A stretch of DNA of 64,000 bases, from contig CAMAQA010000003.1 of assembly GCA_945860415.1 (NCBI GenBank), forward strand, positions 8,982 to 72,981. The letters are read 5' to 3'. The notes under the pieces are model-generated. The model did not search any database, was not told the DNA's origin, and saw nothing but the letters and a program-made list of their open reading frames with translations. Positions within the stretch are counted from its first letter, which is position 1, and every line of letters begins with the position of its first letter. The position numbers and the translations under genes are program-made. Positions 2,507-32,237 of this stretch are shown piece by piece. The DNA is from Bacteriovorax stolpii (GTDB lineage Bacteria > Bdellovibrionota > UBA1018).

Positions 2507-2594
2507 GCGCCCTCCCGAATTTCAACCAGACAGGTGCTCCTCGCATGCAGGATTGTCTTTGCTCCGTAGATCTCTCGGACTAGTGTTCGGTCGC

Positions 2595-5148: not shown

Positions 5149-5969
5149 AATCGTTGATCGACCACCGCAATGTTCCGGTCTTCATCCTCGCCGGAGGCCT
5201 CGGCACTCGGCTTGCGGAAGAAACCCAGTCGAAACCCAAGCCCATGGTGGAAATCGGCGATCTTCCGATCCTGCTGCACATCATGCGCAACTACTACCGG
5301 CACGGCTTCAACGACTTCGTCATTTGCGCCGGCTATCGATCGTGGGAGATCAAGAACTACTTCATGAACTACGAGTTCCGCGATCGGCACCTCGAGATCG
5401 ATCATCGCACCGAACTCGACACACCGGCTCGCCCTCTGGGCAACTCCGTTCGCCAGGAAAAGTGGCGTGTCCGCGTGATCGACACGGGCCTGAACACGAT
5501 GACCGGGGGCCGTGTGGCTCGTGCTTTCGATGTCGCAGCAGCCGACACCTCCTTCGAGCAGTTTGCGGTCACCTACGGCGACGGCCTGACTGATGCGAAC
5601 CTGACGAAGGAACTCCAGTTCCATGCCGAGCACGGCAAGGTGGGCACCGTATTGGCTGTTCATCCGATGGCCCGCTTTGGTGAACTCGAAACCACAGCCG
5701 ATGGAACCGTCCGGCAATTCTCCGAAAAGCCTCAGGCCACCCAGGGGCGAATCAATGGCGGCTTTTTCTTCTTCAAGAAGTCCTTCCGCGACTACGTCTC
5801 GACCGATGAGTCCTGCATCCTCGAGCGAGAGCCGATGGTGAAACTCTCCGGCGAACAGCAGCTCAAGATCTTTCCGCACGACGGGTTCTGGCAGCCGATG
5901 GACACATTACGCGACAAGCACCAGCTCGAGGCACTATGGCAGAGCGGAAAAGCTCCCTGGCTGGCCTGA
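5145..5969 (+). CDS. rfbF: Glucose-1-phosphate cytidylyltransferase
   Basis: ILAGGLGTRLAEET.KPKPMVEIG..PIL.HIM. ... GINDF.IC.GY is an RfbF/DdhA signature. Length is 274 aa. Confidence 0.9.
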   Translation: MKSLIDHRNVPVFILAGGLGTRLAEETQSKPKPMVEIGDLPILLHIMRNYYRHGFNDFVICAGYRSWEIKNYFMNYEFRDRHLEIDHRTELDTPARPLGNSVRQEKWRVRVIDTGLNTMTGGRVARAFDVAAADTSFEQFAVTYGDGLTDANLTKELQFHAEHGKVGTVLAVHPMARFGELETTADGTVRQFSEKPQATQGRINGGFFFFKKSFRDYVSTDESCILEREPMVKLSGEQQLKIFPHDGFWQPMDTLRDKHQLEALWQSGKAPWLA

Positions 5970-7969: not shown

Positions 7970-9005
7970 ACTCCGCCATCGATGACTTTGAGTCGTAAAA
8001 CTGGCGGTACCACTCGCTCGTGGCCTTCGCAGCTTCCGGCATCTCCCAAATCGGATGCCAGGAAAGTTCCTGGGCCGCCTTGTCGATACTGAGCCTCAGA
8101 AAGCGCGCTTCGTAAAGATCCTTCGAGCGGTCGCCGGCAACCTGCCACTTCGCCCCCGGCCAATTCTTCGTCAGCTCGGCCACGAGCTCCAGTACTGTTG
8201 CTCCGTGCCCGTGGGCCGGACCAAAGTTGAAGCCCTGGCCCGAGAATCGAGCCGGATCGCCCGCCGCACGCTCGGCCAGCCGCAAGTAGCCGGAGAGACA
8301 ATCCAGGACGTGCTGCCAGGGACGAGTTGCCGAAGGATTTCGAAGCTGAACGGCCCTGCCTTCGCCCCAGCTCTTTACGCAATCCACGACGATGCGATCC
8401 TTCGACCAGTCTCCGCCGCCGATGACATTGCCGGCTCGTGCGGTAACGACGACCGGAGCATCCGGGTCTCCGATGAAAAAGGAACGCGCGAACGACGAGA
8501 ATACCAACTCGGCGCAGCCCTTCGATGCACTGTAGGGGTCGCGCCCCCCCATCGGGTCATTCTCGCGGTAGGAATACACCCACTCGCGGTTTTCGTAGCA
8601 CTTGTCACTCGTGACGTTGACCAGCACGCGGACGCTTTTGCAATGTCGCAAGGCTTGCATCAGATTGGCCGTGCCGATGACATTCGTGGCGAGTGTTCCG
8701 ACCGGATCGTCGTAGGAAAGCCGAACCAACGGCTGGGCCGCCAGATGGAAAATGACCTCCGGCTGGAACTCGTCCAACGACTTCTGGAGTGCCGCCTGAT
8801 CGCGAATGTCGCCACGGAAGTCACGAATCTGGGACGAAAGCCCCAGGACCTCGAAAAGCGAAGGCTGGGTCGGAATCACATCGGAATATCCAGCCACCGT
8901 CGCTCCCATTTCGAGGAGCCACTGAGTCAGCCAGGAACCCTTGAACCCGGTGTGCCCGGTCACGAGCACCCGCTTGCCGCGATAGAATCCGCCCAGATCT
9001 GCCAT
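7923..9005 (-). CDS. rfbG: CDP-glucose 4,6-dehydratase
   Basis: GKRV.VTGHTGFKGSWL..WL.EMGA.V.GY ... YREN.PMGG.DPYS.SKGCAEL, very close to DdhB/RfbG. Confidence 0.9.
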   Translation of the reverse strand: MADLGGFYRGKRVLVTGHTGFKGSWLTQWLLEMGATVAGYSDVIPTQPSLFEVLGLSSQIRDFRGDIRDQAALQKSLDEFQPEVIFHLAAQPLVRLSYDDPVGTLATNVIGTANLMQALRHCKSVRVLVNVTSDKCYENREWVYSYRENDPMGGRDPYSASKGCAELVFSSFARSFFIGDPDAPVVVTARAGNVIGGGDWSKDRIVVDCVKSWGEGRAVQLRNPSATRPWQHVLDCLSGYLRLAERAAGDPARFSGQGFNFGPAHGHGATVLELVAELTKNWPGAKWQVAGDRSKDLYEARFLRLSIDKAAQELSWHPIWEMPEAAKATSEWYRQFYDSKSSMAEFTRQQLRQYMAQAGE

Positions 9006-9078
9006 GATTTCCGATTAAGCCGAGAAACCCTCAAGATTCAACGTGATTTCCCCAGTCCGATCGATTATCGAAATCCTC

Positions 9079-10410
9079 ATGAATCCAGCCCAGCTCCGCG
9101 AACAGATTGTCGGACAGTCGCGTGAATTTTTCGCCCTTCAGCACTCACCGAAGGCCTTCGTTCCGGGCCAGAGCTACATCCCGGTCACGACCAAGGTGAT
9201 GGACGCCGATGACATGGCATCACTGATCGATGCCTCGCTGGACCTCTGGCTCACCGCCGGCCGGTACTCGAAGGAGTTCGAAGCCGAGATTCCCAAGTTC
9301 TTCGGACGGACCAACAGCGGACTTCTCGTCAACAGCGGCTCGAGTGCCAACCTCGTTGCCGTTTCGAGCCTCGGGTCGCGTCTCATGAGGCAGTTCAAGA
9401 TGCGGCCGATCGAGAAGGGTGACGAGATCATCACCGCGGCAGCAGGATTTCCAACCACGGTGAACCCGATCCTCCAGAACGGCTGGAAGCCCGTCTTCGT
9501 GGATGTCGATCTGAAGACGCTTAATGCATTGCCCGAAGCCATCATGGCCGCCAAGACTTCGCGCACTCGTGCCGTGGTCCTCGCTCACACCCTCGGCAAT
9601 CCGTACCAGGCCAAGGTGCTGGCGGACTGGTGCGCCAGGGAAGACCTCTACCTCGTGGAAGACTGCTGCGACGCTCTCGGCGCAACGGTCGAAGGCCAGC
9701 CCGTCGGCTCGTTCGGTCATTACGCCACGCTCAGCTTCTACCCCGCCCACCACATCACGATGGGCGAAGGCGGAGCGGTCATCGCCCGTGACGGCAAGCT
9801 CCGCCGAGTTGCCGAAAGCATGCGCGACTGGGGACGCGACTGCTGGTGCGAGCCTGGACAGGACAACACCTGCGGCAAGCGTTTTTCGCAGACGCTCGGG
9901 CAGCTCCCCTGCGGCTATGACCACAAGTACACGTACTCGAGCATCGGCTATAACCTGAAGGTCACCGACATGCAGGCGGCCGTCGGAGTCTCGCAGCTCA
10001 AGAAGGTCGCCCGATTCGTCGAGGCTCGTCGCGCGAACTGGAAGGCACTCCATGCCGGAATCCAGTCTTCTCCGAAGCTCCGCGAAGCCTTCACTCCCGT
10101 GGAGCCGACGCCGGGAACGGAGCCCAGCTGGTTCGGCTTTCCGATCCACTGCTCGGAGTCGATCGATCGCGAAAAGGTGGTTCGTCAGCTCGAGGAGCGC
10201 AAGGTCGGTACGCGGCTGGTGTTCGCGGGAAATCTGACCAAGCAGCCGGCCTATGAGGGCGCGGATTACCGGGTGCATGGTTCGCTCCAGAACTCCGACT
10301 TCATCATGAAGCAGACGTTCTGGATCGGCGTCCATCCGGCGCTGACTGCCGCACACCTCCAGTACATGCTCGAGCAGCTGGAAGCGGTCATCCCCCTCAG
10401 CAAGAAATGA
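9079..10410 (+). CDS. rfbH: CDP-6-deoxy-D-xylo-4-hexulose 3-dehydrase (E1), PMP-dependent DegT/RfbH family
   Basis: Contains SFYPAHHITMGEGGAV, DWGRDCWCEPGQDNTCGKRF, YDHKYTYS.IGYNLK.TDMQAA, and LFAGNLT.QP, all hallmarks of DdhC/RfbH. An alternative start at 9043 is possible. Confidence 0.9.
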   Translation: MNPAQLREQIVGQSREFFALQHSPKAFVPGQSYIPVTTKVMDADDMASLIDASLDLWLTAGRYSKEFEAEIPKFFGRTNSGLLVNSGSSANLVAVSSLGSRLMRQFKMRPIEKGDEIITAAAGFPTTVNPILQNGWKPVFVDVDLKTLNALPEAIMAAKTSRTRAVVLAHTLGNPYQAKVLADWCAREDLYLVEDCCDALGATVEGQPVGSFGHYATLSFYPAHHITMGEGGAVIARDGKLRRVAESMRDWGRDCWCEPGQDNTCGKRFSQTLGQLPCGYDHKYTYSSIGYNLKVTDMQAAVGVSQLKKVARFVEARRANWKALHAGIQSSPKLREAFTPVEPTPGTEPSWFGFPIHCSESIDREKVVRQLEERKVGTRLVFAGNLTKQPAYEGADYRVHGSLQNSDFIMKQTFWIGVHPALTAAHLQYMLEQLEAVIPLSKK

Positions 10411-11453
10411 AGCCACTCTTCCACTCCGACCTCGACGAAATTCTCGATCTCTCGCGTGAAGATCTACTCGCGCTTCGCGGGGCGAGGATCTTCATCACCG
10501 GAGGAACGGGTTTCTTCGGAAAATGGATCGTCGAGAGCCTCATGCACGCCCGCGAACGTCTCCTCGGCGGCAAGCTCGAAATCACCGTCCTGACTCGCAG
10601 CCGGGCGAACGCCCGGACAGTCTTTGAGGGCGCGTTCGATCTCGACCAGGTCCACTGGCACGAGGGAGAGATCGCCTCGTTTTCATTTCCGTCTGGTTCC
10701 TTCAGCCACGTGATCCATGCGGCGACTCCGGCGCGCGCCAGCATCAATGACAACGATCCGCTCCGGATGCTCGAGATCACGATCTCGGGCACACGACACA
10801 TCCTCTACTTTGCACGGCAGGCCCAAAGCTCCCGCCTTCTCCTGACCAGCTCCGGGGCGGTCTACGGAGCCCAGTCGCCAGATCTTTACGGCGTGCCCGA
10901 ATCGCACCCCGGATTTGTCGATCCCCTCGAACCGAAGAACGCCTACGCCGTCGGAAAGCTCGTGTCGGAACACTTCTGCACGCAGTTCTCTTCTGACAAG
11001 CTGGCGTGCCTCATTGCCCGCTGCTTTGCCTTCGTCGGTCCGGGGCTTCCGCTCGACGAGCACTTTGCGATCGGAAATTTCATCGGCGACGCCCTCGCCG
11101 GGCGCAAGATCACCATCAAGGGAGACGGCACCCCGTATCGTTCGTATCTCTATCCCACGGACCTGATTGCCCAACTCCTGGCGATACTCGTTCGGGGCGT
11201 GAGCTGCAGGCCCTATAATGTCGGCCACCCGCAGGCATTCAACTTGAGGGAGATCGCCGAAGCCGTTTCTGCGCAGACAAACGTCGGAACGGAAATCCTG
11301 GGCAAGCCTCAACCGGGGGCCCGCTCGGTTCGGTACGTACCTGACCTGTCTCGCCTGCAATCTGAACTCGGCGCAGTGCCTCGCGTGAACCTCTCGGAAG
11401 CGATTCGGCGAACTCTCGCGTGGCACCGACATTCTGACCAAAAAAGGAAGTAA
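10407..11453 (+). CDS. Extended SDR NAD(P)-dependent epimerase/reductase, likely a CDP-deoxyhexose 4-reductase or epimerase (CDP-abequose/paratose-synthase-like or YerF-like)
   Basis: TGGTGFFGKWIVESL Rossmann motif and a YxxxK region (YAVGK). Located directly downstream of rfbFGH. Confidence 0.65.
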   Translation: MKPLFHSDLDEILDLSREDLLALRGARIFITGGTGFFGKWIVESLMHARERLLGGKLEITVLTRSRANARTVFEGAFDLDQVHWHEGEIASFSFPSGSFSHVIHAATPARASINDNDPLRMLEITISGTRHILYFARQAQSSRLLLTSSGAVYGAQSPDLYGVPESHPGFVDPLEPKNAYAVGKLVSEHFCTQFSSDKLACLIARCFAFVGPGLPLDEHFAIGNFIGDALAGRKITIKGDGTPYRSYLYPTDLIAQLLAILVRGVSCRPYNVGHPQAFNLREIAEAVSAQTNVGTEILGKPQPGARSVRYVPDLSRLQSELGAVPRVNLSEAIRRTLAWHRHSDQKRK

Positions 11454-11459
11454 CGTCAC

Positions 11460-13274
11460 ATGAGCACGATCCGCGTTGCCGACTACATCACCCAGTTCCT
11501 CGCCTCTCGCGGCGTTCGCCACGTTTTTCTGGTCACGGGCGGGGGCGCGATGCACCTCAACGACGCTTTCGGCCGTACCAAGGAAATCGAATACGTCGCC
11601 TGCCATCACGAGCAGGCCTGCGCGATGGCGGCGGAAAGCTACTATCGCCTCAGCGGCCGGGTCGCAGCCGTCAACGTCACCACGGGTCCTGGCGGCACGA
11701 ACGCACTCACCGGAATTTTCGGCGCCTACACCGATTCTTGTGGAGTCTTCGTCGTTTCCGGACAGGTGAAGACCGAAACCATCATCGCCTCGACCGGCCT
11801 GCCGCTTCGACAGATGGGCGATCAGGAAGTCGACATCATCTCGATGGCCCGCCCCATTACCAAATATGCGGAGATGGTCACCGACCCCACCACGATTCGG
11901 TATCATCTCGAGAAGGCCTGGCACCTCTGCACGACCGGACGCCCCGGACCCGTGTGGCTGGACATCCCCATCAACATTCAGTCGTCCATGATCGACCCGG
12001 CTTCACTGAAGGGGTTTGAACCCACAGAAGCAAAAATCGCCTGGGAGACCGCCGACCTCAAGGCCACGTGCGCCCGCATTCTCGACGACATCCGGCGAGC
12101 CAAACGGCCGGTGATCATGGCCGGAAGCGGCGTTCGGATATCCGGAACGACGAGCCAATTCCTCGCGCTCGTTGAACGCCTAGGTGTTCCGGTGGCGACT
12201 GCGTTCAATGCGCACGACCTCGTCTGGAATGATCATCCGCTCTACGCGGGCAGGCCGGGTACCGTGGGCGATCGTCCCGGAAATTTTGCGGTCCAGAACG
12301 CCGATTACGTTCTCGTGCTGGGCTGTCGCCTCAATATCCGCCAGGTCAGTTACAATTATCGCAGCTTCGCTCGCGCAGCGAAGGTCGCCATGGTGGATAT
12401 CGACGCCGCCGAGCTCAAGAAGCCCACACTGAAGATCGATGAGCCCGTCCACGCCGACCTGAACGACTTCTTTGCCACCTGCGCGACAATTAAAACGGAA
12501 GGCCCCACTCCGGAGCACTCGGCCTACGTGGCTCGGTGCAAGGAATGGCTCGCAAAGTATCCAGTGGTCCTGCCCGAGTACCGGGCCAATCGCTACAAGA
12601 TCAACCCTTACATCTTCATGGATCAGCTCTTCGAGCAGCTCGGGCCGGACGCGACGGTGGTCACCGCCAATGCCACGGCCTGCGTGACCGCATTCCAGAC
12701 TGCGACGATTCGCAAGGGCCAGCGCCTCTACTCGAACAGCGGCTGCGCCACGATGGGATTCGACCTGCCTTCGGCAATCGGTGCCACGTTCGCCGCTGGT
12801 CGCAAGCCGGTGATCTGCCTGGCCGGCGACGGCTCGATCCAGATGAACGTGCAGGAGCTGCAGACGATCGCTACCCACCGGCTGCCGATCAAGATCTTCC
12901 TGCTCAATAATCTGGGGTACCAGTCGATCAAGCTGACCCAGCAGAATTTCTTCTCGGACAACATTGTCGGCTGCGGCACGGACAGCGGCCTCGGATTTCC
13001 GAACTTCGCCCTGCTCGCCCAGGCCTACGGTCTGAAGTACTTCTCGGCGCAGACTCAGGACGCCTCTCCGGCAGCGATTCGCGAGGCACTCGCCGAACCA
13101 GGCCCAGTCCTTTGCGAAATCGAACTCGACGAACGTCAGCCGTTCGCGCCGAAGCTGAGCTCGCGCCGACTACCCGACGGACGAATGGTCTCCTCGCCAC
13201 TGGAAGACATGGCCCCATTCCTGCCGCGGGACGAATTTAAGGCCAACATGATCATTCCGATCATGGACGAGTGA
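11460..13274 (+). CDS. Thiamine-diphosphate-dependent enzyme, acetolactate-synthase large-subunit family (YerE-like two-carbon branch-attaching enzyme candidate)
   Basis: N-terminal ThDP PYR domain (VTGGGAMHLNDAF..TTGPGGTNAL), a central domain, and a C-terminal GDGS..N ThDP-binding motif (LAGDGSIQMNVQELQT). Length is 604 aa. Confidence 0.75.
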   Translation: MSTIRVADYITQFLASRGVRHVFLVTGGGAMHLNDAFGRTKEIEYVACHHEQACAMAAESYYRLSGRVAAVNVTTGPGGTNALTGIFGAYTDSCGVFVVSGQVKTETIIASTGLPLRQMGDQEVDIISMARPITKYAEMVTDPTTIRYHLEKAWHLCTTGRPGPVWLDIPINIQSSMIDPASLKGFEPTEAKIAWETADLKATCARILDDIRRAKRPVIMAGSGVRISGTTSQFLALVERLGVPVATAFNAHDLVWNDHPLYAGRPGTVGDRPGNFAVQNADYVLVLGCRLNIRQVSYNYRSFARAAKVAMVDIDAAELKKPTLKIDEPVHADLNDFFATCATIKTEGPTPEHSAYVARCKEWLAKYPVVLPEYRANRYKINPYIFMDQLFEQLGPDATVVTANATACVTAFQTATIRKGQRLYSNSGCATMGFDLPSAIGATFAAGRKPVICLAGDGSIQMNVQELQTIATHRLPIKIFLLNNLGYQSIKLTQQNFFSDNIVGCGTDSGLGFPNFALLAQAYGLKYFSAQTQDASPAAIREALAEPGPVLCEIELDERQPFAPKLSSRRLPDGRMVSSPLEDMAPFLPRDEFKANMIIPIMDE

Positions 13275-13285
13275 TCAGAGCCGGC

Positions 13286-14170
13286 TCAGCTTTTACGGCA
13301 GGCCAGCTGGAAGACGTGGGTGGCGCTTCCTCCTCCTACGATCGAGAGGGTTTCAAGCGATAGGACCGAGAGCCCACAGCCCTCCACGAGCCGCCGCAGT
13401 GAGGCTTCCGAATGGAAGTTGATGTGCTCGTGCCAGTGGCGCTTCTTCAGCCAGAAGTTCGGGTCGTCGCCCCGGTGCCGGATCAGGTCTTCCTGGGGCA
13501 CCTCGATGTAGAGGACCGTGTCCTTCTTCATCACACTGCCGATCTCCAGGATCTGCTCCCGGGGAAACGGAATATGCTCCAACACGTGGCTGCTCACGAT
13601 CAGGTCATAATGACCCTCGAGCGCGCGGAAGTAGTTCACCTTCGCGGCACCCGCGATGACCGGCCGATCGCTGATGTCAAAAATGTCCAGCGCGCTCGCA
13701 CGCGACCTGAAGGGAGTGTTGATTCCGGTGTCCCCGCCCCAGTCCAGCACCCGGGGAGCGGCGTTCACCAGCCATGGGCTCAGGAAGTCCTCGATCTTGT
13801 CCAAGTGGACGACGCCGGCCGCAATTCTGCTGTTCCGTTCACGGTAACCGGGCTCGTACCTATCCCGAAGGGCGACGTACTCCTCATCACGGTATCCCGA
13901 ATAAAGCGCCGCCATTTCACGGTCATCGAATCGAATGTCGAGGAAGACCAGATCACAGAACTCGCAATGCAGGGTGTTGCAGAGGGAATAAGCCATTCCC
14001 TGGCTGATGCTCCTCAGGCCCCAGGACTCATCGATCCTCACCGGCTCCCAGCCAAAAACCCGATGAGCAACGAACGGCATCAGAATGGCGGAGTTCCTAT
14101 GCAGGTTCCTCGAACCACAGGTCACGCACTCTGAGGCGATTCTGGGCTGTCCGGAAGTCGGTTTCATCAA
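13286..14170 (-). CDS. Class I SAM-dependent methyltransferase with an N-terminal Cys4 zinc ribbon (sugar C/O-methyltransferase-like)
   Basis: CVTCGS...CNTLHCEFCD zinc ribbon, MTase motif I VLDWGGDTG, and motif LIVSSHVLEHIPFP. Confidence 0.7.
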   Translation of the reverse strand: MMKPTSGQPRIASECVTCGSRNLHRNSAILMPFVAHRVFGWEPVRIDESWGLRSISQGMAYSLCNTLHCEFCDLVFLDIRFDDREMAALYSGYRDEEYVALRDRYEPGYRERNSRIAAGVVHLDKIEDFLSPWLVNAAPRVLDWGGDTGINTPFRSRASALDIFDISDRPVIAGAAKVNYFRALEGHYDLIVSSHVLEHIPFPREQILEIGSVMKKDTVLYIEVPQEDLIRHRGDDPNFWLKKRHWHEHINFHSEASLRRLVEGCGLSVLSLETLSIVGGGSATHVFQLACRKS

Positions 14171-14198
14171 TGCAAGCCTCCCTTGCGTCCCTTGAGGG

Positions 14199-15392
14199 TT
14201 GAAGCTATTTCATAGCGAACACCCCGAGGAATTTGCAATGTCTGTCTTCCACGACATCTGGCGAGAAATTCAGCCGACATCACGATGCCTGGAGATCGCC
14301 CGCGACACTCTTGCCCAGGGAGGCCGGATCGCTGTCTACGGGACGGGCACGGCAGCCTCAGATGTGATCCGGCTGCTCAGAAAGAAGGACCTGTCCCCAT
14401 CGCTGGTTCTCGATGCAAAGAGCAACAAGAGTTCACTCGAAGGTCTCGAGGTCAGTGACCCCGGCTCGCCCTCCTTCTCTCAGCCGGACAAGCAAAGAAC
14501 CGTCGTCTTCATGGGAATTTTCAATCCCGCCGTCGACCTCACGGGCCTCCGTCAGCATCTCATTTCACTCGGTTGGACGAACTCGATTGACTTCGTCGAG
14601 CTCCATGCAGCAGCACCTGAGGAACTCGGCGACCGCTACTGGCTTACCGACAGATCTTTCTATCAACGGCATCAGGCCGAAATTACTGCCGCAGCCAAAC
14701 TCTGGGCGGACGACCACAGTCGTAAGCTGTATGAAGATACCTTGCGTTTTCGATTGCTGGGAGATGATTCAGGCCTGCGGGCACCGGATCTCCACCATCA
14801 GTACTTTCCGCTCGATCTGGCCCCCCTTCAGACTCGACTGAAACGCAGCCCGCTTCGGCTAATAGACTGCGGCGCCTGTGTTGGCGACGTCTTGAAACAT
14901 ATCCGAAAGCAGGGATACCCGATCGAATCGGTAGCTTGTTTCGAACCCGACCCCAGAAATTATCAGGGGCTGATCGAGACCGTGAACTCTGGAGCGCAAA
15001 TACCGGAGGGAGCATTCCTGTTTCCATGCGGAGTTTCTTCGCGCTTCGAGGTTCTTCGTTTTTCCTCCTCACAAGGCGCGGCCAGCGCCGTTTCCGCTGA
15101 TGGAGACCTGGCCATCAATTGCCTTTCGATCGACGAATCTCTGCCCGGATATGCTCCGAATTTCATCAAAATGGATGTGGAAGGGGCCGAATCCGCCGCC
15201 CTGGACGGAGCGAGACGCACGATCAGCAGCAGTCGACCGGCCCTGGCCATCAGTGCGTATCATCGACCCGCGGATCTTTGGGAGCTTCCGCACCTCATCG
15301 AGGCATGGCAGCTCGACTATGAGTTCCACCTTCGTCAGCACATGTTTCGAGGGTTCGACTTGGTTTTATACGCAATTCCTCGTATGAACTAA
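14199..15392 (+). CDS. FkbM-family methyltransferase with an N-terminal Rossmann-like extension
   Basis: The C-terminal half reads LIDCGACVGD..FEPDPRNY..FIKMDVEGAE..L.GA, a Methyltransf_21/FkbM signature. Confidence 0.7.
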   Translation: MKLFHSEHPEEFAMSVFHDIWREIQPTSRCLEIARDTLAQGGRIAVYGTGTAASDVIRLLRKKDLSPSLVLDAKSNKSSLEGLEVSDPGSPSFSQPDKQRTVVFMGIFNPAVDLTGLRQHLISLGWTNSIDFVELHAAAPEELGDRYWLTDRSFYQRHQAEITAAAKLWADDHSRKLYEDTLRFRLLGDDSGLRAPDLHHQYFPLDLAPLQTRLKRSPLRLIDCGACVGDVLKHIRKQGYPIESVACFEPDPRNYQGLIETVNSGAQIPEGAFLFPCGVSSRFEVLRFSSSQGAASAVSADGDLAINCLSIDESLPGYAPNFIKMDVEGAESAALDGARRTISSSRPALAISAYHRPADLWELPHLIEAWQLDYEFHLRQHMFRGFDLVLYAIPRMN

Positions 15393-15421
15393 CTTCAAAA
15401 ATTTGAACTGAGGGGACCATC

Positions 15422-16510
15422 ATGTCTGTCATCCACGGAAACATCTTCGACGAGCTTTTTGTTCTCGAACTAGCCAGCAATCACTGGGGCCGACTCGAGC
15501 GCGGCATCAAGATCGTCCATGACTTCGGCCGAATCGTCCGCCACAACAACGTCAAGGCGGCGATCAAGCTCCAGTTCCGTGATGTCGACAACTTCATCCA
15601 CAAGGATTTCCGCGGCCGGACGGACATCCGCTACATCAAGAAGACCCTCGACACCCAGATGCCCTGGGAGAAATATCGGATCCTCTGCGAGGAGGTCCGC
15701 AAGAACAACTGCATGATCATGGCCACGCCGTTTGATGAAGTTGGCGTCGAGAAGTGCGTCGAGTTCAACTGCGCCATCATCAAGATCGCCAGCTCCGACC
15801 TGAATGACTGGGTACTGCTCGAAAAAATCGCCAAGACCAAGAAGCCGGTGATCGCCTCGACCGGCGGATCAAGCCTGAAGGACATCGACGATCTCGTGAC
15901 CTTCTTCACGAATCGGAACATTCCGATCGCGATCAATCACTGCGTCTCCATTTATCCTTCCGAGGACAAGGAGCTCGAACTCAACCAGATCGACTTCCTG
16001 AAGGCGCGATACCCGCACCTGACCATCGGATTTTCGACGCACGAGCAGCACAGCTGGGATGCCTCGATCATGATGGCCTACGCCAAGGGTGCGCGTACGT
16101 TCGAGCGTCACATCGACATCGACGCGGATGGAATTCCCGTTTCGCCCTACTGCACGACTCCCGAAAACTGCGACAAGTGGTTCCGGGCCTTCCACAAGGC
16201 CAAGGAAATGTGTGGAGCCCCTGGCACTGCCAAGCGCATTCCGCCGGAGAAGGAAATCAAGTACCTCGACGGCCTCGTTCGTGGAATTTACGCCAGCCAC
16301 GACCTGCCGGAAGGTCATGTCGTCACGGAGAAGGACATTTACCTCTCCATCCCGCTGCAAAAGGGCCAGATCTCCTGCCGCGAACTGTTTTTCGGTGAAA
16401 AGCTGATCCGCCCCGTGAAGGCGGATGGCGCGATCACGATCGACCACATGGACACTCCGTATTCGCAGAACCCGGAGCTCCGTCAGTTGATCATGAACCG
16501 CGGCATCTGA
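15422..16510 (+). CDS. NeuB-family ulosonic-acid synthase (N-acylneuraminate / KDN-9-phosphate synthase-like) with a C-terminal SAF domain
   Basis: ELASNHWG..., IKIASSDLND, STGGSSL.DIDD, and IAINHCVS.YP are conserved NeuB TIM-barrel motifs. The C-terminal region is antifreeze-like. Confidence 0.85.
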   Translation: MSVIHGNIFDELFVLELASNHWGRLERGIKIVHDFGRIVRHNNVKAAIKLQFRDVDNFIHKDFRGRTDIRYIKKTLDTQMPWEKYRILCEEVRKNNCMIMATPFDEVGVEKCVEFNCAIIKIASSDLNDWVLLEKIAKTKKPVIASTGGSSLKDIDDLVTFFTNRNIPIAINHCVSIYPSEDKELELNQIDFLKARYPHLTIGFSTHEQHSWDASIMMAYAKGARTFERHIDIDADGIPVSPYCTTPENCDKWFRAFHKAKEMCGAPGTAKRIPPEKEIKYLDGLVRGIYASHDLPEGHVVTEKDIYLSIPLQKGQISCRELFFGEKLIRPVKADGAITIDHMDTPYSQNPELRQLIMNRGI

Positions 16511-17172
16511 TGGCCCACCTCTTTTTTGACCTCGATGGAACCCTGCTGGACCCCAGCGAGGGTTTCGCGCTTTCGCTGGCGCACGCGTTTTCCCGGAGCG
16601 GGCTGAACGTTCCCCCGCGCGAGGTGCTCGTGACGGCCATTGGCCCTCCCGCAGACGAGTGGTCGATGCATTTTGGGGAAGATCGGCTTCCGGCCTCTCG
16701 CCTCTCCGAATTGATCGTCCACTATCGCGAACACTACGAGCGCGAAGGCCTCTACCTGCAATCTCATTATCCCGGACTGCGCGAGAGCATCGAGGCCCTG
16801 CGCCTGGCAGGCCACTCACTCTCCATTGCCACTTCAAAACCCCAGAAGCAGGCTGAAACCGTGCTGTCGCATTTCGGCTTCGAGCCGATGTTCACGGGCA
16901 GGATCTTCGGGCGAGATCTCTCGCAGTCGGGAGACAAGACCACGATCCTGGGCCGGGGCCTGCGAAGCACTGGCCATGAGCCCGCGCAATCCATCATGAT
17001 CGGCGACCGGCTTCATGACTGCCGCGCCGCCCGAAATCTCGGGCTCACCAGCATCGGCGTGCTTTATGGTTTTGGCTCACGACAGGAGCTCGAGGGCGCC
17101 GGCGCGACGCTGATCTGCGAAGCTCCGAGTCAGCTCGTTGCCTGCGTGACCCGAGTGATCTCCGGGGCCTGA
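16510..17172 (+). CDS. HAD-superfamily hydrolase, subfamily IA (phosphoglycolate-phosphatase-like); candidate sugar-phosphate phosphatase partnering the NeuB-like synthase
   Basis: DLDGTLLD motif I, S.ATSK motif II region, and GD..D motif IV (IGDRLHDCRAA). Confidence 0.75.
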   Translation: MAHLFFDLDGTLLDPSEGFALSLAHAFSRSGLNVPPREVLVTAIGPPADEWSMHFGEDRLPASRLSELIVHYREHYEREGLYLQSHYPGLRESIEALRLAGHSLSIATSKPQKQAETVLSHFGFEPMFTGRIFGRDLSQSGDKTTILGRGLRSTGHEPAQSIMIGDRLHDCRAARNLGLTSIGVLYGFGSRQELEGAGATLICEAPSQLVACVTRVISGA

Positions 17173-18452
17173 GCGTCCAGCTCCAGCACGGCAAGGTAGA
17201 CCAGCAGAGAATTCCAGAAATACAACCAGTAATGGCCGTTCAGGAGTAGAAAGAACGCCCACGCGGAGGCGCTCCAGGCCAGGACTCGCCGAGAGTTCGC
17301 GCGATCGCGAAACGCAAGCACGAGGAACACGAGCACGATGAGCCCCTGGACCCGCTGCTGCCATCCGGAGATGCCGAGGGCATAGAACACAGGAGAAAAA
17401 GTCAGCCCATAATCGCCAGGATATTCCGTGGACTGAACGGCTCCCTGGAACCAGAAGATCACCTTCCAGACTTCACCGAAGCTCGTCGAGGAATACAGCA
17501 GCGCAACGAGCCCTCCCACGAGCGCAAGTGAGGCTCCCCCGAGCAGCAGCACCCGGCGCAGATTCGTGCGCCACGAGTTGGAGACCAGGGTGAGCGCCCA
17601 GAACGGCGTCATCACCCACGCCCACTGCCGCGAGATCACCAGTGCCGGCAGGAGAAAAACCCAGGCTGCAGGATAAAGTACCAGCAGTACGAGCCCCAGG
17701 ATGAAGCCCTCGAAATACAGCTCGTGCCGAAAATTCATGTAAGGCGAAAGCGCCAGCCAGACGAGCGCCCCTGCTGCGGACGTTCCGAAAGACTGCGTCT
17801 TTCGAAGCCGTATCCACACGAGCAGCATCCATGCACTCCGGTACAGGACCGTATTCCAGCGCAAGTCGAGTCCGAGGGCCCAGGCAGGCCAGTTCATGAA
17901 CAGCGTTCCGGGCAGGTATCCCATCCGGTTCGTCCGCCCCGCCATTTCGAACAGAGAATAGGGACTCGATCCGGCCGACCACAAATCCAATCCCTTCTGG
18001 ATGACCGGCAGCATGTCCGAGCGAAGCGGATTCACCGGAAAATGCAGGATGGATCCGATCAGGACCACGAGATTCAGACCAAACGCTGCGCCAACGAGCA
18101 GCTCAGGCCTGCGCGCCGATCCGGGCAGGAAAAGTACGGCAAGGGCCAGCCCCGCCCCGATCAGTGCGAACCATGGAAACTCGTAGCCCATCGGCGCGAA
18201 CCGAACGGTGCTCATTCCGAGATAGGCAAAGTTCAGGACGGCCCAGGTTCCGAGCGCCCCACGATGATGAAGCCAGGCGCCCCACTGCTCGCGCCGAGGC
18301 AGCCGCCGGAGCACAGCAAGCACGACCAGCAAGGCAGTGGCCGCCAGCCAAAGGAGTCTTCCCAGTTGAAACGGAAGAGATCCCCACGGAATATTTCGCC
18401 CGACAGCGAGAGTCTGGGCCAGGAGCAGGGGTAGAAATATCAAAACATTCAT
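17130..18452 (-). CDS. Polytopic membrane protein (440 aa), possible GT-C family glycosyltransferase
   Basis: At least 12 TM segments. No soluble catalytic domain recognised. Confidence 0.45.
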   Translation of the reverse strand: MNVLIFLPLLLAQTLAVGRNIPWGSLPFQLGRLLWLAATALLVVLAVLRRLPRREQWGAWLHHRGALGTWAVLNFAYLGMSTVRFAPMGYEFPWFALIGAGLALAVLFLPGSARRPELLVGAAFGLNLVVLIGSILHFPVNPLRSDMLPVIQKGLDLWSAGSSPYSLFEMAGRTNRMGYLPGTLFMNWPAWALGLDLRWNTVLYRSAWMLLVWIRLRKTQSFGTSAAGALVWLALSPYMNFRHELYFEGFILGLVLLVLYPAAWVFLLPALVISRQWAWVMTPFWALTLVSNSWRTNLRRVLLLGGASLALVGGLVALLYSSTSFGEVWKVIFWFQGAVQSTEYPGDYGLTFSPVFYALGISGWQQRVQGLIVLVFLVLAFRDRANSRRVLAWSASAWAFFLLLNGHYWLYFWNSLLVYLAVLELDAQAPEITRVTQATS

Positions 18453-19490: not shown

Positions 19491-20273
19491 ATGGTCAATC
19501 TCTGGGAGTTCTTCTGCTTTCACAAGAAGTTCCTCGTCTACACGATGGTGACCAGAAATCTGAAGATCAAGTACCGGCGGTCGGTCCTGGGCTTCCTATG
19601 GACCTTGCTCATCCCCATCCTTCAGGCCGGTATCTATTACCTCGTATTCAACCGAATCCTTAAAGTGCAGGCGGACAACTACGTCCTATTCATCCTGACG
19701 AGTCTCCTGCTGTGGGGCTTCTTCTCCAACACCCTCACGGAAGCACAGGAATCGCTCCTGATGCACTCGAACCTCATCACGAAAATCAATATCCCGCTTC
19801 ATGCATTCCCGTGGATCGCATCAATCACTCATGCAATTATCCTCTTTCTGAGCCTACCCGTAGTGGTCGGAATCTCTCTACTTCATGGAATTCGTCCTAC
19901 GCCCTCCTACTTTTATCTTCCTGTTTTGATCCTCCAGCTGCTTCTGTTTGCATACTCAATGGGCCTGGTTCTCTCGATCATCGTCATATTCTTCAGAGAC
20001 CTGAGGCACCTTCTTGCGATCGGACTGCAGATTTGGATGTATTCAACCCCCGTACTGTACCAGGCCAAGATGCTTCCACCTGAATTCAGCTGGGTGCTGT
20101 GGGCGAACCCTCTCGGGTTCATATTTTCATCAGCGCACAGGATCGTCCTAGAAGGAAGCTGGCCGACTCTTACCCAGTTCACTGTCCCAACTCTTTGGGC
20201 AATCGGAGCTGCCTGGGTTGCTAGAGCCGCCCTGAACCGCGCGCGGACAATGGGAGTGACAGAATGGCTTTAA
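19491..20273 (+). CDS. wzm: ABC-2 type polysaccharide export permease
   Basis: The RNLKIKYRRSVLGFLW...L.P signature of Wzm/KpsM with 6 TM segments. Confidence 0.85.
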   Translation: MVNLWEFFCFHKKFLVYTMVTRNLKIKYRRSVLGFLWTLLIPILQAGIYYLVFNRILKVQADNYVLFILTSLLLWGFFSNTLTEAQESLLMHSNLITKINIPLHAFPWIASITHAIILFLSLPVVVGISLLHGIRPTPSYFYLPVLILQLLLFAYSMGLVLSIIVIFFRDLRHLLAIGLQIWMYSTPVLYQAKMLPPEFSWVLWANPLGFIFSSAHRIVLEGSWPTLTQFTVPTLWAIGAAWVARAALNRARTMGVTEWL

Positions 20274-21058
20274 GCTCCAGATCCGTGACGATTGAACTAC
20301 GCAGGGTCTGCAAGTCCTTCCGGAACTGGGATGCCCGCCCGTTCTCCATCAAGGAATTCCTGGTCAACCTTTCTCGCTTCAGGTCGGGCTTCAAGCGTGG
20401 CGAAACCGTACAGGTCCTCAGGGACGTCTCATTTTCCATTCACTCAGGTGAGTTTGTCGGAATCATGGGTCCGAATGGCGCGGGCAAAAGCACGATACTG
20501 AAGGTAATTTCCGGAATTTATCTACCCACCTCCGGAACGGCAATCTCGCATGGCCAGATAGCGCCTCTGATCGAATTGGGCGCAGGCCTCCATCAAGACC
20601 TGAGCGGCCTGGAGAATATTTATCTCAATGGGGCAATTCTGGGATTCGGCAGGGCGGCCGTTAGCTCCAAGATCTCGGAGATTCTGGAATTCGCGGACCT
20701 CGGTGAAAAGATTCATATGCCGGTCCGATATTACTCCAATGGCATGCTGGCCCGGCTCGGGTTTTCAATTGCCACACACCTGCCTGCGCCCATTCTCCTC
20801 ATTGATGAAATTCTTGCCGTAGGCGACCTAACTTTTCAGGAAAAGTGCATTCGGAAAATCAACGAACTGCACGATCAAGGCCGCACGATCGTTTTGGTTT
20901 CTCATGACCCGAAGGCGATCGCTTCATACTGTGATCGATGCGTCGTGATATCCGCCGGCGGTGTATTTTATGACGGTCCCGCCGAACACGCGGAAGCCCA
21001 GTACCGTGCCGGACTCGATCTAAACTTGATGCGCTCTCCGGTCGAAAACCAGGATTGA
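20264..21058 (+). CDS. wzt: ABC polysaccharide export ATP-binding protein (short form without C-terminal carbohydrate-binding domain)
   Basis: Walker A GPNGAGKST, signature YSNGMLARLGFS, Walker B LLIDEIL. Overlaps wzm by 10 nt. Confidence 0.9.
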   Translation: MALSSRSVTIELRRVCKSFRNWDARPFSIKEFLVNLSRFRSGFKRGETVQVLRDVSFSIHSGEFVGIMGPNGAGKSTILKVISGIYLPTSGTAISHGQIAPLIELGAGLHQDLSGLENIYLNGAILGFGRAAVSSKISEILEFADLGEKIHMPVRYYSNGMLARLGFSIATHLPAPILLIDEILAVGDLTFQEKCIRKINELHDQGRTIVLVSHDPKAIASYCDRCVVISAGGVFYDGPAEHAEAQYRAGLDLNLMRSPVENQD

Positions 21059-21089: not shown

Positions 21090-21965
21090 ATGACGCTACC
21101 TTTTAGCAGCCTCTTCAGGCCGTCGAAAAACATCCCGACCCGCGGTACCCGCGAGAGAGGGTTGAGCCCCCAGTTTCTTCGTTCGCTTTCCGCGGCCCAA
21201 AAAGAATATGAATCAAAGGGGTTTGCAGTAATACCGGAGGTCTTTACTCCCGAGGAAATCAACCGACTCAGGGCTGCCAGCTTGATCGCTCTCACCCAGC
21301 TCGGCGAGATCAAGAAACATTACACTCATGAACCACTTGAGACGACCAGCAAGAGCGGTTTTGAAAGTCCGGCGCTCCTCTTCTGGCCCCGCCTGGCCAA
21401 TCGCGAATTTGCGGAATTCTCAGATGACCCGCGCCTTCGCGCAGTCGTCCAGGCGTTTCTGGGTGACTCCGTCAAGCAACTGAATAATCAGTTTTATTAC
21501 CGGCTCCCAGGGGATGGAGACCAGTTCTCATGGCATCAGGACATCATGTTTCGAACCCCCCTGGAACAATACCCTGGGGTCGTCGAAGAGGATGGGTACC
21601 TGCAGACTGCGATTCTGGTGGATGATTTTTTGGAATCCAATGCTCCTGTGACCTTCATTGCAGGCTCGCACAAGCTTGGAAATCTGGAGTTGCAGAAGGA
21701 CATCAAACAGTCCGTTCTTAGGGATCTTAACGGCACAAAGCTGCCGAAAGCCCTGGAATCACTTTCTCTCGAGAATCTTCTCGGTAAATCCGGGTCGATT
21801 GCCGTCTGGTCGTCATTGACGGCACACAGGTCCAGTCCCAATCTCGGGCTATCCAGCCGCTTCTACCTGATGAATGGGTTCGCTCGCGCACGAAACTCGA
21901 GACCATGGCCGTGGTACATGAAAGATGGGGCACTTTGTGATCTCGATCCACGGATGATTCCATGA
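21090..21965 (+). CDS. Phytanoyl-CoA dioxygenase (PhyH)-family Fe(II)/2-oxoglutarate-dependent oxygenase
   Basis: FSWHQDIMF (HxD) and a distal H in FIAGSHKLGN, matching the PhyH-family double-stranded beta-helix. Confidence 0.75.
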   Translation: MTLPFSSLFRPSKNIPTRGTRERGLSPQFLRSLSAAQKEYESKGFAVIPEVFTPEEINRLRAASLIALTQLGEIKKHYTHEPLETTSKSGFESPALLFWPRLANREFAEFSDDPRLRAVVQAFLGDSVKQLNNQFYYRLPGDGDQFSWHQDIMFRTPLEQYPGVVEEDGYLQTAILVDDFLESNAPVTFIAGSHKLGNLELQKDIKQSVLRDLNGTKLPKALESLSLENLLGKSGSIAVWSSLTAHRSSPNLGLSSRFYLMNGFARARNSRPWPWYMKDGALCDLDPRMIP

Positions 21966-22516
21966 GCTCTTCGAGCCAGAACAAAATTCAAAGCGCAGAC
22001 GAATTGAACCAGCACTACTCCGCGGAGGACCCCTGGGAGTACGAATCGAACCCGCACGATGCAGTTCGCATCCAAAGATTTAAAAGGCTGATCGCTGGTC
22101 GGCGTTTTCGTCGTGCTCTCGACATCGGATGTGGAAACGGTTTTCTAACACGAGAGATCCCAGCTGCAGAAGTGATGGGAATCGACCTTTCCACCGCTGC
22201 GATCGAGATAGCCAGATCCAAGCTTCCAGATCCAAGATTCCAGTTCGATTCATTATCGGTCTTCGACGCCCACTCGAGGACCCTTGGTCAATTCGACCTC
22301 GTGGTCATTACCGGAGTCCTCTACCCTCAATACATCGGAGGTGCGTACCGATTGATTGACGCCAACCTTCGCTCGCTGCTTTGTCCTGGCGGCCGGCTCA
22401 TTCATTGTCATATCTTTGAGTGGCTCAGATACACTCCCACCCTGAATTTGCTATCGAGAGAGACTTACCAATACAGGGATTACACTCACGTCTTGGAAGA
22501 GCGGGTTGCCGAATGA
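21962..22516 (+). CDS. Small class I SAM-dependent methyltransferase
   Basis: ALDIGCGNGFLT motif I. 184 aa. Its stop overlaps the next start as ATGA. Confidence 0.7.
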   Translation: MSSSSQNKIQSADELNQHYSAEDPWEYESNPHDAVRIQRFKRLIAGRRFRRALDIGCGNGFLTREIPAAEVMGIDLSTAAIEIARSKLPDPRFQFDSLSVFDAHSRTLGQFDLVVITGVLYPQYIGGAYRLIDANLRSLLCPGGRLIHCHIFEWLRYTPTLNLLSRETYQYRDYTHVLEERVAE

Positions 22517-24018
22517 TCCTCTGCTACCACAAGGTATCACCCGAGCGGAAAACGCCATGGTGGGTGAGTGTCGACAAATTTTACTCAGATATGATCGCGC
22601 TTCGTAGTCGGAAGGTGGTTAGCCTGGACGATTACGATCCACTGAATCCCGATCATGTCGTCATCACTTTTGATGGCGTCTACAAGAACATTGCCCAATA
22701 CGCTGCCCCAATTCTGCAAGAGTTCAGATATCCTTTCGAGCTCTTCGTCATTGGTGACTACATAGGGCGGGACAACGAATTCGACGTTTCCGAGCCGCTG
22801 ACCCCATTCGCTTCAATCGAATATCTCAAGCGCATGGAGGCAATGGGAGGAAAGGTGCAATGGCATACTCGTACCCACGCACTCCTCACTCAGCAGGACC
22901 CGGCATTGTCAGCTGGCGAGCTTGAAATCCCTGAGCCGATCAGACGGTGCTTTCCACTGCCTCATTTCAATTGGTTCGCCTATCCACACGCCCTGTCGAG
23001 CAAGGGCTCCAGGGCACTGGTTCGCACGAAATTCAAAGGTGCGATTGCGTGTGAGAACGGAGATCCGAGCGATCAGTGGAACCTGCCTCGCAAACTGGTA
23101 TTTGAGGGCACATCCGTGCGAAACAAGAAGATCTCGATTATTATTCCGAACTTCAACTATGGCCACCTCGTCCATGAGGCAATTGATTCAGCCCTGGGAC
23201 AAACCTATCCTGCGGATGAGATTCTCGTCATTGACGACTGCAGCACGGACAATTCTCGCGAACGCATCTCCACATTTCGAAACAGGGTCCGCGTCGAATT
23301 CAATGAGCGAAATCTTGGAATCATCGATAATTTCAACAAGGCCGTGTCGCTTGCAACGGGCGACTTCATTGTATTTCTGGGCGCGGACAACAGGATGCGC
23401 GCCGACTACCTTGAAAAGACTGTGCCCATCCTTCTTGCACAAGAAGAGGTAGGGGTTGTCTATACGGACATGATGTTGTTTGGTGACAGATCTCATCTTC
23501 TCGCCGAGAAAGTCGGGGCACAGCAGGTCACGCACGAGAACTGGATTTGGCAGTTTCCAGAGTACAACGCTGAAGCGTTATCCAAGCTGGAAAATGTCAA
23601 CTTTATCCACGGTTCCTCGATCTTTCGACGAAAAGCATATGACGCGGTCGGAGGATACAGAAAGTCCGGCCGCCCGGAAGATCATGATTTTTTTCACCGG
23701 ATCCTGATGCACGGATGGAAGGCAGCCCGCAGCCCACATGCTTTGATCGAGTATCGGCAGCATTCCGAAAACCAGGCCAACACCAAGCTCTCCAATGAAA
23801 TGGAAATTGCCTTACTGAAACGCGAGCTGGCCTTCGCCTTGGAGGGCACGAAGTCGAGCAACATTGTCCAGCTGGGCACGAAAATCGAGCGATTCAGCCA
23901 AAAAATTCCGTACTTGAATCGTTCTCTCAACTTTTTGTCTGGCACGATCCTGAAGTCACTTGGAGTACTGAAGACCATCGTAAGGACTATGAAGTTGATG
24001 AGACCCCGACGATCCTGA
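22513..24018 (+). CDS. Bifunctional polysaccharide deacetylase (NodB/CE4-like) - GT2 glycosyltransferase fusion
   Basis: N-terminal LCYHKV...ITFDGVY...H.H... is deacetylase-like. Central ISIIIPNFNYGHLV..DDCSTDNS with DxD is GT2. Confidence 0.75.
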   Translation: MILCYHKVSPERKTPWWVSVDKFYSDMIALRSRKVVSLDDYDPLNPDHVVITFDGVYKNIAQYAAPILQEFRYPFELFVIGDYIGRDNEFDVSEPLTPFASIEYLKRMEAMGGKVQWHTRTHALLTQQDPALSAGELEIPEPIRRCFPLPHFNWFAYPHALSSKGSRALVRTKFKGAIACENGDPSDQWNLPRKLVFEGTSVRNKKISIIIPNFNYGHLVHEAIDSALGQTYPADEILVIDDCSTDNSRERISTFRNRVRVEFNERNLGIIDNFNKAVSLATGDFIVFLGADNRMRADYLEKTVPILLAQEEVGVVYTDMMLFGDRSHLLAEKVGAQQVTHENWIWQFPEYNAEALSKLENVNFIHGSSIFRRKAYDAVGGYRKSGRPEDHDFFHRILMHGWKAARSPHALIEYRQHSENQANTKLSNEMEIALLKRELAFALEGTKSSNIVQLGTKIERFSQKIPYLNRSLNFLSGTILKSLGVLKTIVRTMKLMRPRRS

Positions 24019-27040: not shown

Positions 27041-27134
27041 CCGATCCCGCCGTCACGCTTGCCCGCTGTCCGGGAACGGCTACTGACTGACGGACGAGGT
27101 TCCCAGCAGCCGATTTTTCGGCTAATCCACTCTT

Positions 27135-28193: not shown

Positions 28194-28222
28194 GTGGCGT
28201 GCGGCCTGCTTTACTCGGCATC

Positions 28223-28738: not shown

Positions 28739-28796
28739 ACTGTCTGGCTCAACCCGGGCTGCTCGGCGCAGGCGGCCAAGAATGTTTGCTCCTCAT

Positions 28797-28825
28797 ACCT
28801 CCATTTTTATGATAAAAATGGAGGT
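28797..28825. promoter_or_regulatory. 12-bp perfect inverted repeat (ACCTCCATTTTT-ATGAT-AAAAATGGAGGT) that abuts the AAA-ATPase start codon and includes its GGAGG Shine-Dalgarno sequence
   Basis: Read directly from the sequence. It would form a hairpin in the mRNA that sequesters the RBS, or could be an operator. Confidence 0.5.
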
Positions 28826-29989: not shown

Positions 29990-29994
29990 GGGCG

Positions 29995-30611: not shown

Positions 30612-30624
30612 GAAATTTCATGAA
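30607..30624. promoter_or_regulatory. 18-bp perfect palindrome TTCATGAAATTTCATGAA overlapping the Phd-antitoxin start codon, within an AT-rich divergent intergenic region
   Basis: Read directly from the sequence. The 30612..30767 region is far more AT-rich than the flanks and also carries direct repeats CGTTTCACGTTTCGTTTCAC. Confidence 0.5.
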
Positions 30625-32129: not shown

Positions 32130-32237
32130 CCAGATTTAAAGTGACAGTTTAAATTCGGCTATTGCAACTGGGATGGCATGTCGGCCGGATGATGACCTTG
32201 CCTTTTCTCTCCCCCTGCGGCTAACTCGACAACCATC

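Follow-up and report, generated by a model that had tools for sequence, protein, structure and literature searches.

A NeuB-like synthase as the probable source of the side-chain donor for an acyl-branched 3,6-dideoxyhexose in Bacteriovorax

We analysed a window of 64,000 nucleotides from Bacteriovorax stolpii (GenBank assembly GCA_945860415.1, contig CAMAQA010000003.1, positions 8,982 to 72,981; "the window" means this whole stretch), and in it three genes at 14199-17172 that encode an FkbM-family methyltransferase, a NeuB-like synthase and a HAD phosphatase. These genes probably belong to a cassette that makes a cytidine diphosphate (CDP)-activated, acyl-branched 3,6-dideoxyhexose, in which the NeuB-like enzyme would supply a 3-deoxy-2-ulosonic acid and a thiamine diphosphate (ThDP)-dependent enzyme would couple it to the sugar. 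In the known sugars of this class, erwiniose, caryophyllose and gastriose, the long branch is attached by a YerE-like enzyme, which joins a γ-hydroxy α-keto acid to CDP-4-keto-3,6-dideoxyglucose; this donor acid comes from a neighbouring pyruvate aldolase, and the branch is afterwards acted on by a reductase (Steitz et al., PMC9306805). The product of a NeuB-type enzyme, which joins phosphoenolpyruvate (PEP) and an aldose into a 3-deoxy-2-ulosonic acid, is of the same compound class as these donors. No pyruvate aldolase (BphI/HpaI/HpcH type) was found among the conserved neighbours in 80 related loci or in the window, and the NeuB-like gene occupies that slot; we therefore read 4180-17172 as one cassette, a view taken from the sequence, which we hold together with the pathway as a whole and on balance favour. 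Further, the NeuB-like gene adjoins an acetolactate-synthase-like ThDP gene in 79 of the 80 related loci, a link that points to the ulosonic acid serving as a side-chain donor and not as a glycosyl residue. The three genes are:

14199-15392, plus strand: two-domain FkbM-family methyltransferase, a putative tailoring enzyme (397 amino acids (aa); PF05050, TIGR01444; in 17 of the 80 related loci)
15422-16510, plus strand: NeuB-family PEP-dependent synthase of the 3g8r clade (362 aa; PF03102, 133.4 bits)
16510-17172, plus strand: HAD-IA phosphatase, COG0546/Gph-like (220 aa; PF13419, 95 bits; FDLDGT motif intact)

A preliminary description, made from the letters of the DNA, had placed here a NeuB-like gene overlapping a HAD-IA gene by one nucleotide, with an FkbM gene upstream; open reading frame (ORF) and domain searches agree with it and show three same-strand ORFs at the coordinates given. 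The overlap lies in TGATG at 16508-16512, where the stop codon of the NeuB-like gene and the start codon of the phosphatase gene have one base in common; to judge by this arrangement, the phosphatase is translationally coupled to the synthase. A Shine-Dalgarno-like box (GAGGGG) stands 5' of the NeuB-like start.

The NeuB-like protein matches PF03102 over residues 47-236 with a score far over the cut-off of 22.1 bits, and reaches neither the NeuB equivalog TIGR03569 (110.3 bits, cut-off 399.65) nor the PseI equivalog TIGR03586 (122.9 bits, cut-off 340.25), its scores being about one third of the cut-offs. Identity with canonical NeuB, PseI and LegI enzymes is 25-31%, and the closest match in the PDB is 3g8r (215 bits, residues 11-323). 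The SAF domain assigned to it in the preliminary description is below threshold as a PF08666 match (E 0.013, 16.4 bits, cut-off 21), and remains plausible because the region is homologous to the C-terminal domain in SpsE (1vli), with an alignment that runs through residue 342; among homologues of 66% identity or more, about one in three carries a precomputed PF08666 match. An alignment that sets 81 members of the subfamily and five remoter relatives beside eight canonical homologues shows the PEP- and metal-binding residues of Neisseria meningitidis NeuB (NmNeuB) to be invariant. All are kept in the window protein as E16, K49, Q51, T102, K121, S124, S146, Y178, S205, H207, E228 and H230, the counterparts of NmNeuB E25, K53, Q55, T110, K129, S132, S154, Y186, S213, H215, E234 and H236. 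The essential Arg314 in the AFP-like domain of NmNeuB, which positions the 2-acetamido (N-acetyl) group (PMC6795526), corresponds to I310 in the window protein and to I or M in the subfamily, while Asp247 corresponds to V240 and Asn74 to R66. The Arg and Asp are present in all eight canonical homologues and lost in the 81 subfamily sequences. Conversely, positions 70 and 74 are R or K clade-wide and S, T, N, L or I in canonical enzymes. The pattern extends to 107 full-length representatives of the wider clade, in which position 310 is hydrophobic in 105 and position 74 is R or K in 104. Because the PEP and metal residues are kept and those that position N-acetylmannosamine (ManNAc) are lost, the enzyme should still condense PEP with an aldehyde, and this aldehyde should not be a 2-acetamido sugar. 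An anionic aldose, probably a phosphorylated one, would fit the extra basic residues and the phosphatase coupled to the synthase.

The 80 related loci, whose NeuB-like proteins are 63-93% identical to that of the window, come by their record titles from Acidobacteriota, Oligoflexia/Bacteriovorax, Pseudomonadota, Desulfosporosinus, Bacteroidota, Verrucomicrobiales and FCPU426, that is, from at least seven phyla, and the closest (90-93%) are metagenome-assembled genomes of Oligoflexia and Bacteriovorax. The usual order is RfbF, dehydratase, RfbH, short-chain dehydrogenase/reductase (SDR), ThDP enzyme, HAD, NeuB-like, GT2; gene order and orientation vary among loci and the adjacency is retained. 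In the majority of loci the trio of ThDP, HAD and NeuB-like genes has the CDP-sugar genes on one side and a GtrB-like GT2 gene on the other, all on the same strand and closely spaced or overlapping. SDR genes were seen in 68 loci. The clade comprises about 250 clusters at 50% identity, with orthologues 64-70% identical across phyla, and no relative of the NeuB-like protein was found in the plasmid collection. At 30-40% identity, most relatives are about 500 aa long and combine a NeuB-like domain with an extra C-terminal domain of about 150 aa (P0137-P0266; loci L098-L102). We also surveyed 201 genomes of the phylum, among which related genomes are not independent, so that the counts are descriptive. 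Orthologues of at least 58% identity occur in only four of them, and a same-genus genome is without one. RfbH is found in 8 of the 9 genomes having the NeuB-like clade vs 51 of the 201 overall, and three of five relatives of 35-41% identity also abut a ThDP gene.

The ThDP enzyme of the window is a relative of carboligases that act on ketones. Its scores with the acetolactate synthase equivalogs are all under cut-off, and its best solved relative is JanthE (8rph), with 433 bits over residues 3-598, its full length; PpYerE (5ahk) follows with 250 bits. Both are YerE-like enzymes accepting ketones (PMC12188165, PMC12247030), and the physiological substrates of JanthE are stated to be unknown (PMC12188165).

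All the regular partners seen in the related loci sit just upstream of the three genes here, at 4180-13274. The NeuB-like gene, called isolated in the preliminary description, is therefore anything but that: with its two companions it forms the 3' end of a conserved cassette that begins at 4180. The further genes of the cassette are:

4180-5148, plus strand: GT2 glycosyltransferase, GtrB/ArnC/PgfS-like, acting on polyprenyl phosphate by family (PF00535; best NCBIfam models PgfS and ArnC, both below cut-off)
5145-5969, plus strand: glucose-1-phosphate cytidylyltransferase of the RfbF/DdhA type (TIGR02623, 283 bits, slightly under the cut-off of 300; in 56 of the 80 loci)
5936-7969, plus strand: polytopic membrane protein of 677 aa with eight hydrophobic segments, a candidate GT-C-type transferase for a lipid-linked sugar
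7923-9005, minus strand: CDP-glucose 4,6-dehydratase, RfbG (TIGR02622, 478 bits, cut-off 278)
9043-10410, plus strand: RfbH/DdhC (E1), CDP-6-deoxy-D-xylo-4-hexulose 3-dehydrase (NF011936, 620 bits, cut-off 423; in 53 of the 80 loci)
10407-11453, plus strand: SDR, a candidate YerF-like reductase of the branch carbonyl (PF01370; 4-nt overlap with rfbH)
11460-13274, plus strand: YerE/JanthE-type ThDP-dependent carboligase (three thiamine pyrophosphate domains; GDG motif)
13286-14170, minus strand: Methyltransf_23 S-adenosylmethionine (SAM)-dependent methyltransferase, a putative tailoring enzyme (PF13489, 72 bits)

The GT2 protein has two C-terminal hydrophobic segments at residues 230-275, and its homologues (59-79% identity) occur in 57 of the 80 loci, mostly straight after the NeuB-like gene. 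With the SDR no equivalog attains its cut-off, and the 677-aa membrane protein has no Pfam or NCBIfam match; an Atlas search with it gave a weak lead to PMT_2-like clusters. Related loci carry a GtrA flippase and PMT_2 or GT-C proteins in the same cassette, and this genome has a GtrA homologue on another contig. A methyltransferase related to the 13286-14170 product (c24) precedes the ThDP gene in many related loci.

From these assignments a pathway can be proposed. RfbF, the CDP-glucose 4,6-dehydratase and RfbH would make CDP-4-keto-3,6-dideoxy-D-glucose, the acceptor; these enzymes are identified by family scores, and the chemistry is that expected from the established roles of their families. 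The NeuB-like enzyme would condense PEP with an aldose, probably a common phosphorylated one, into a 3-deoxy-2-ulosonic acid, which is a 4-hydroxy-2-oxo acid, and the HAD phosphatase would strip the phosphate before or after coupling. The YerE/JanthE-type enzyme would then decarboxylate the ulosonic acid and join the acyl anion so formed to the CDP-keto sugar at C4. Reduction of the new branch carbonyl would fall to the SDR, and the Methyltransf_23 and FkbM enzymes may methylate the product. Undecaprenyl phosphate could receive the finished sugar from the GtrB-like GT2 enzyme and hand it to a periplasmic GT-C enzyme, the likely target being the adjacent ABC-transporter-dependent polysaccharide. 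Within this reading as a whole, and by analogy with the erwiniose, caryophyllose and gastriose pathways, the NeuB-like enzyme would seem to take the place of the pyruvate aldolase. A methylated product had been suggested from the FkbM gene; methylation remains plausible, with two methyltransferases within the cassette.

The HAD phosphatase falls under the cut-off of every NCBIfam equivalog, its best models being phosphoglycolate phosphatase, PpaX and COG0546, and its relatives in the PDB are predicted phosphatases and AlnB. No KdsC/YrbI-type (HAD-IIIA) model is among the NCBIfam matches listed (25 of 30 families) or the PDB matches. This bears on the proposal that the synthase and phosphatase resemble the route to 3-deoxy-D-glycero-D-galacto-non-2-ulosonic acid (KDN) 9-phosphate of Bacteroides: a pair acting on a phosphorylated aldose is still the likeliest local chemistry, and membership of the Bacteroides route is not supported, the phosphatase being HAD-IA/COG0546. 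An orthologue of the phosphatase is present in 47 of the 80 loci, mostly between the ThDP and NeuB-like genes. In loci without it, a methyltransferase of 480 aa is often encoded ahead of the ThDP gene, with a HAD-UbiA fusion downstream. As a separate observation, HAD-less cassettes of Acidobacteriaceae (L040, L055, L056, L080 and others) are flanked upstream by a conserved EPSP-synthase-family gene and a SIS/GKRP-like gene, and downstream by two PMT_2/TPR membrane proteins and the HAD::UbiA fusion.

We looked through the assembly (2.63 Mb, 93.9% complete) for the partners that other uses of an ulosonic acid would need. A profile search for a cytidine monophosphate (CMP)-ulosonate synthetase gave a single KdsB-sized CTP_transf_3 gene in the whole assembly and a second, weak cytidylyltransferase match on contig C85, which we rejected as it is GlmU; no NeuA was found beyond these two. 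No Epimerase_2 match, and thus no NeuC/WecB, was found in the assembly. The absence of NeuA and NeuC, noted beforehand for the neighbourhood, so extends to the genome searched. Nor were Pse or Leg partner genes found. The earlier view that the pathway is not a sialic, legionaminic or pseudaminic one is upheld. As only KdsB and GlmU came out of the searches, the NeuB-like product has, as far as the sequence tells, no dedicated CMP-activating enzyme. A canonical KdsA is encoded on contig C70 (243.9 bits, PF00793), and a 3-deoxy-D-arabino-heptulosonate 7-phosphate synthase and KdsB are also present. Replacement of KdsA in the synthesis of core lipopolysaccharide (LPS), which had been named as the finding that would overturn the earlier proposal, could therefore be rejected as the role of the NeuB-like enzyme. 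The genome can probably supply arabinose-5-phosphate and, via a GmhA-like gene, heptose-7-phosphate.

These searches bear most directly on the possibility that the synthase and phosphatase make free KDN, 3-deoxy-D-manno-oct-2-ulosonic acid (Kdo) or another ulosonic acid, which the FkbM enzyme would O-methylate and which, once nucleotide-activated, would become a residue or the chain terminator of the polysaccharide, as the preliminary description had it. The NeuB-family fold with intact PEP and metal residues, the coupled phosphatase, the adjoining ABC-transporter polysaccharide locus and a KdsB whose promiscuity is possible in principle all speak for it. To become a KDN-like residue or a terminator, however, the acid would have to be activated with CMP and passed on by a ketosyl transferase, and five further carrier genomes have, like this one, a single KdsB-sized gene and no second CMP-ulosonate synthetase, so that the ulosonic acid as a component of the polysaccharide is not borne out. 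Terminator-dependent export, as in O9a- and O12-type systems, uses a Wzt with an extra carbohydrate-binding domain; the Wzt of the window (20264-21058) has 264 aa and consists of the ABC domain alone, with no such module. There is also no Capsule_synth match, that is, no KpsC/KpsS-type Kdo transferase, in the genome. The terminator role is thus not supported, and a β-Kdo terminator in particular was rejected as unsupported. With no KdsC/YrbI-type model among the listed phosphatase matches and the adjacency to the ThDP gene in nearly every related locus left unexplained, we regard the free-acid route as quite improbable.

Two other arrangements keep the ThDP enzyme in the picture. The order of the steps might be reversed within the same cassette and sugar class, with the ThDP enzyme first adding a short unit, the NeuB-like enzyme then extending the branch aldehyde with PEP, or else attacking the C4 ketone directly, and the ThDP enzyme decarboxylating the resulting keto acid. 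Co-occurrence data leave the order of steps unfixed, and JanthE takes short donors such as pyruvate in vitro (PMC12188165). On the other hand, a small phosphorylated substrate matches the basic residues peculiar to the clade, and the accompanying phosphatase, more closely than a CDP-sugar does. To our knowledge, NeuB-family enzymes use free aldoses and not nucleotide-linked ketones. In the erwiniose pathway, moreover, the aldolase precedes ErwE, which did not accept pyruvate (PMC9306805), and we consider the reversed order unlikely. Alternatively, the ThDP-HAD-NeuB trio could be a self-contained module for a free small molecule (a decarboxylated 2-deoxy sugar or an acyloin) that lies near CDP-sugar genes only through the clustering of glycan genes. 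Four long loci (L063, L070, L071 and L076) do have the trio alone, with no CDP-sugar genes within 10 kb, but all four genomes encode an above-cut-off RfbH elsewhere. This, the same-strand position of most trios between CDP-sugar genes and the GtrB-like gene, and the ketone-accepting YerE-like enzymes as closest solved relatives of the ThDP enzyme make a stand-alone module very doubtful.

Several points weigh against our preferred pathway, in which the NeuB-like enzyme supplies the donor acid. The ulosonic acids in question, 3-deoxy sugars of seven or more carbons, are mainly cyclic hemiketals, and the ThDP enzyme would need the minor open-chain form. The phosphatase is absent from 33 of the 80 cassettes, so dephosphorylation is not an obligatory function of the cassette. 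No E3 reductase (AscD/DdhD-type) for RfbH is conserved among the 80 related cassettes, and none was found in this cassette or in the genome, where the sole match of a search via NAD_binding_1 is a 248-aa ORF on contig C72. Neighbouring genes count for less as evidence inside a glycan island than they do in other places. What the aldehyde substrate and the product are, and in which order the steps run, is inferred from sequence, and no such sugar was reported from these taxa in the literature searched.

The N-terminal 200 or so residues of the FkbM protein, described earlier as an uncharacterised domain, have no Pfam match, the FkbM domain covering residues 221-376. Along its full length, an AlphaFold2 model of the protein (pLDDT 88) matches PDB 2py6, an FkbM-family protein of Methylobacillus, with a TM-score of 0.74-0.78. 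The length of the N-terminal part and its lack of a family match hold, and the word uncharacterised does not: on the model, this half is part of a known two-domain architecture and no novelty. GC content over 14001-16000, the FkbM and NeuB-like genes, falls to 0.556 from about 0.60 in the flanks.

The cassette is embedded in further glycan genes. Its flanks (583-4148 and 17130-18452) encode a GT87 protein and two polytopic membrane proteins that match no family, one of 588 aa and the other, on the minus strand, of 440 aa. These proteins could serve as GT-C transferases, as a polymerase or as a ligase. At 19491-21058 lies a Wzm/Wzt ABC transporter pair, and right after wzt, at 21090-24018, a PhyH-family dioxygenase, a small SAM-dependent methyltransferase and a polysaccharide-deacetylase::GT2 fusion look like further polysaccharide tailoring enzymes. 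At 26048-35393 are gmd and the dTDP-rhamnose genes rmlB (27135-28193), rmlA (32238-33113) and rmlD (34353-35393), split by an ORF6N/Rha gene, two genes for AAA_14 ATPases (DUF4143 is also present in the first) and a HipA-like gene.

More broadly, and with less confidence than in the cassette itself, we suggest, at somewhat short of even chances, that enzymes of the 3g8r-type NeuB clade are dedicated to making donor ulosonates and, with JanthE-type ThDP enzymes, build a hitherto undescribed family of 3,6-dideoxyhexoses, very large (about C12-C15) and with polyhydroxyalkyl branches, often O-methylated and carried by undecaprenyl phosphate to periplasmic GT-C enzymes, in at least seven phyla. No paper linking NeuB or sialic acid synthase to acyl-branched sugars was found in the literature searched; if the proposal is true, a keto acid of the sialic-acid type would here for the first time serve as a carbon building block and not as a glycosyl residue. 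A clade annotated in databases as 'N-acetylneuraminate synthase' or 'SpsE' would then need re-assignment, and genome surveys taking these genes as sialic-acid capacity would over-count. Soil Acidobacteriota, Bdellovibrio-like predators and other bacteria would carry a new class of higher-carbon branched sugars. JanthE-type ThDP enzymes, already engineered as biocatalysts (PMC12188165), would gain a testable physiological donor, and tertiary-alcohol synthesis a PEP-driven, presumably irreversible enzymatic route to long chiral α-keto acid donors.

Comparison with known systems places the cassette closest to the acyl-branched sugar pathways. The KDN-9-phosphate route of Bacteroides thetaiotaomicron (BT1714/BT1713) likewise pairs a NeuB-family synthase with a phosphatase, which implies a phosphorylated aldose. 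Its phosphatase is of the HAD KdsC/YrbI type and the route ends in CMP-KDN, whereas the window phosphatase is HAD-IA/COG0546 and no CMP-transferase was found in the genome. With NeuB, PseI and LegI, for example N. meningitidis NeuB (1xuz), the window protein shares the NeuB domain with its TIM-barrel fold and the ligands of PEP and Mn, and an AFP/SAF-like domain at its C-terminus is probable; it differs by lacking the equivalents of Arg314 and Asp247, and by the missing NeuA, NeuC, Pse and Leg partners. PDB 3g8r, a structural genomics entry named 'probable spore coat polysaccharide biosynthesis protein E', has in common with it the basic FKGRDDVKY loop and the replacement of the RPG arginine of canonical NeuB; with many substitutions, it is farther from the window protein than are the orthologues of 64-93% identity. 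JanthE (Janthinobacterium sp. HH01; 8rph, 8rpi, 8rpj) aligns end to end with the window ThDP enzyme, including a C-terminal extension missing from PpYerE, and has CDG in the ThDP motif in place of GDG.

The acyl-branched scheme has as its members ErwE/F/I/J for erwiniose (Pectobacterium atrosepticum), MMAR_2331-2333 for caryophyllose (Mycobacterium marinum), MyGE/MygF/MygI for gastriose and YerE/YerF for yersiniose, and a SAM-dependent methyltransferase, as in our cassette, has also been reported in the cluster of Rhodopseudomonas palustris (PMC9306805). Shared with these systems are the CDP-4-keto-3,6-dideoxyglucose genes, the YerE-like ThDP enzyme, an NAD(P)H reductase (for which the SDR is the candidate here), a glycosyltransferase and, as proposed here, an enzyme making a 4-hydroxy-2-oxo acid. 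In the known pathways this enzyme is the pyruvate aldolase, while here it would be a NeuB-family synthase with its HAD phosphatase, and with such a donor synthase a longer, polyhydroxylated 2-deoxyalkyl side chain is expected. Delivery also appears to differ, passing through a GtrB-like lipid carrier step. If the reading as a whole is right, as we are inclined to believe, the new element with respect to the known scheme would be the NeuB-type enzyme in the slot of the aldolase.

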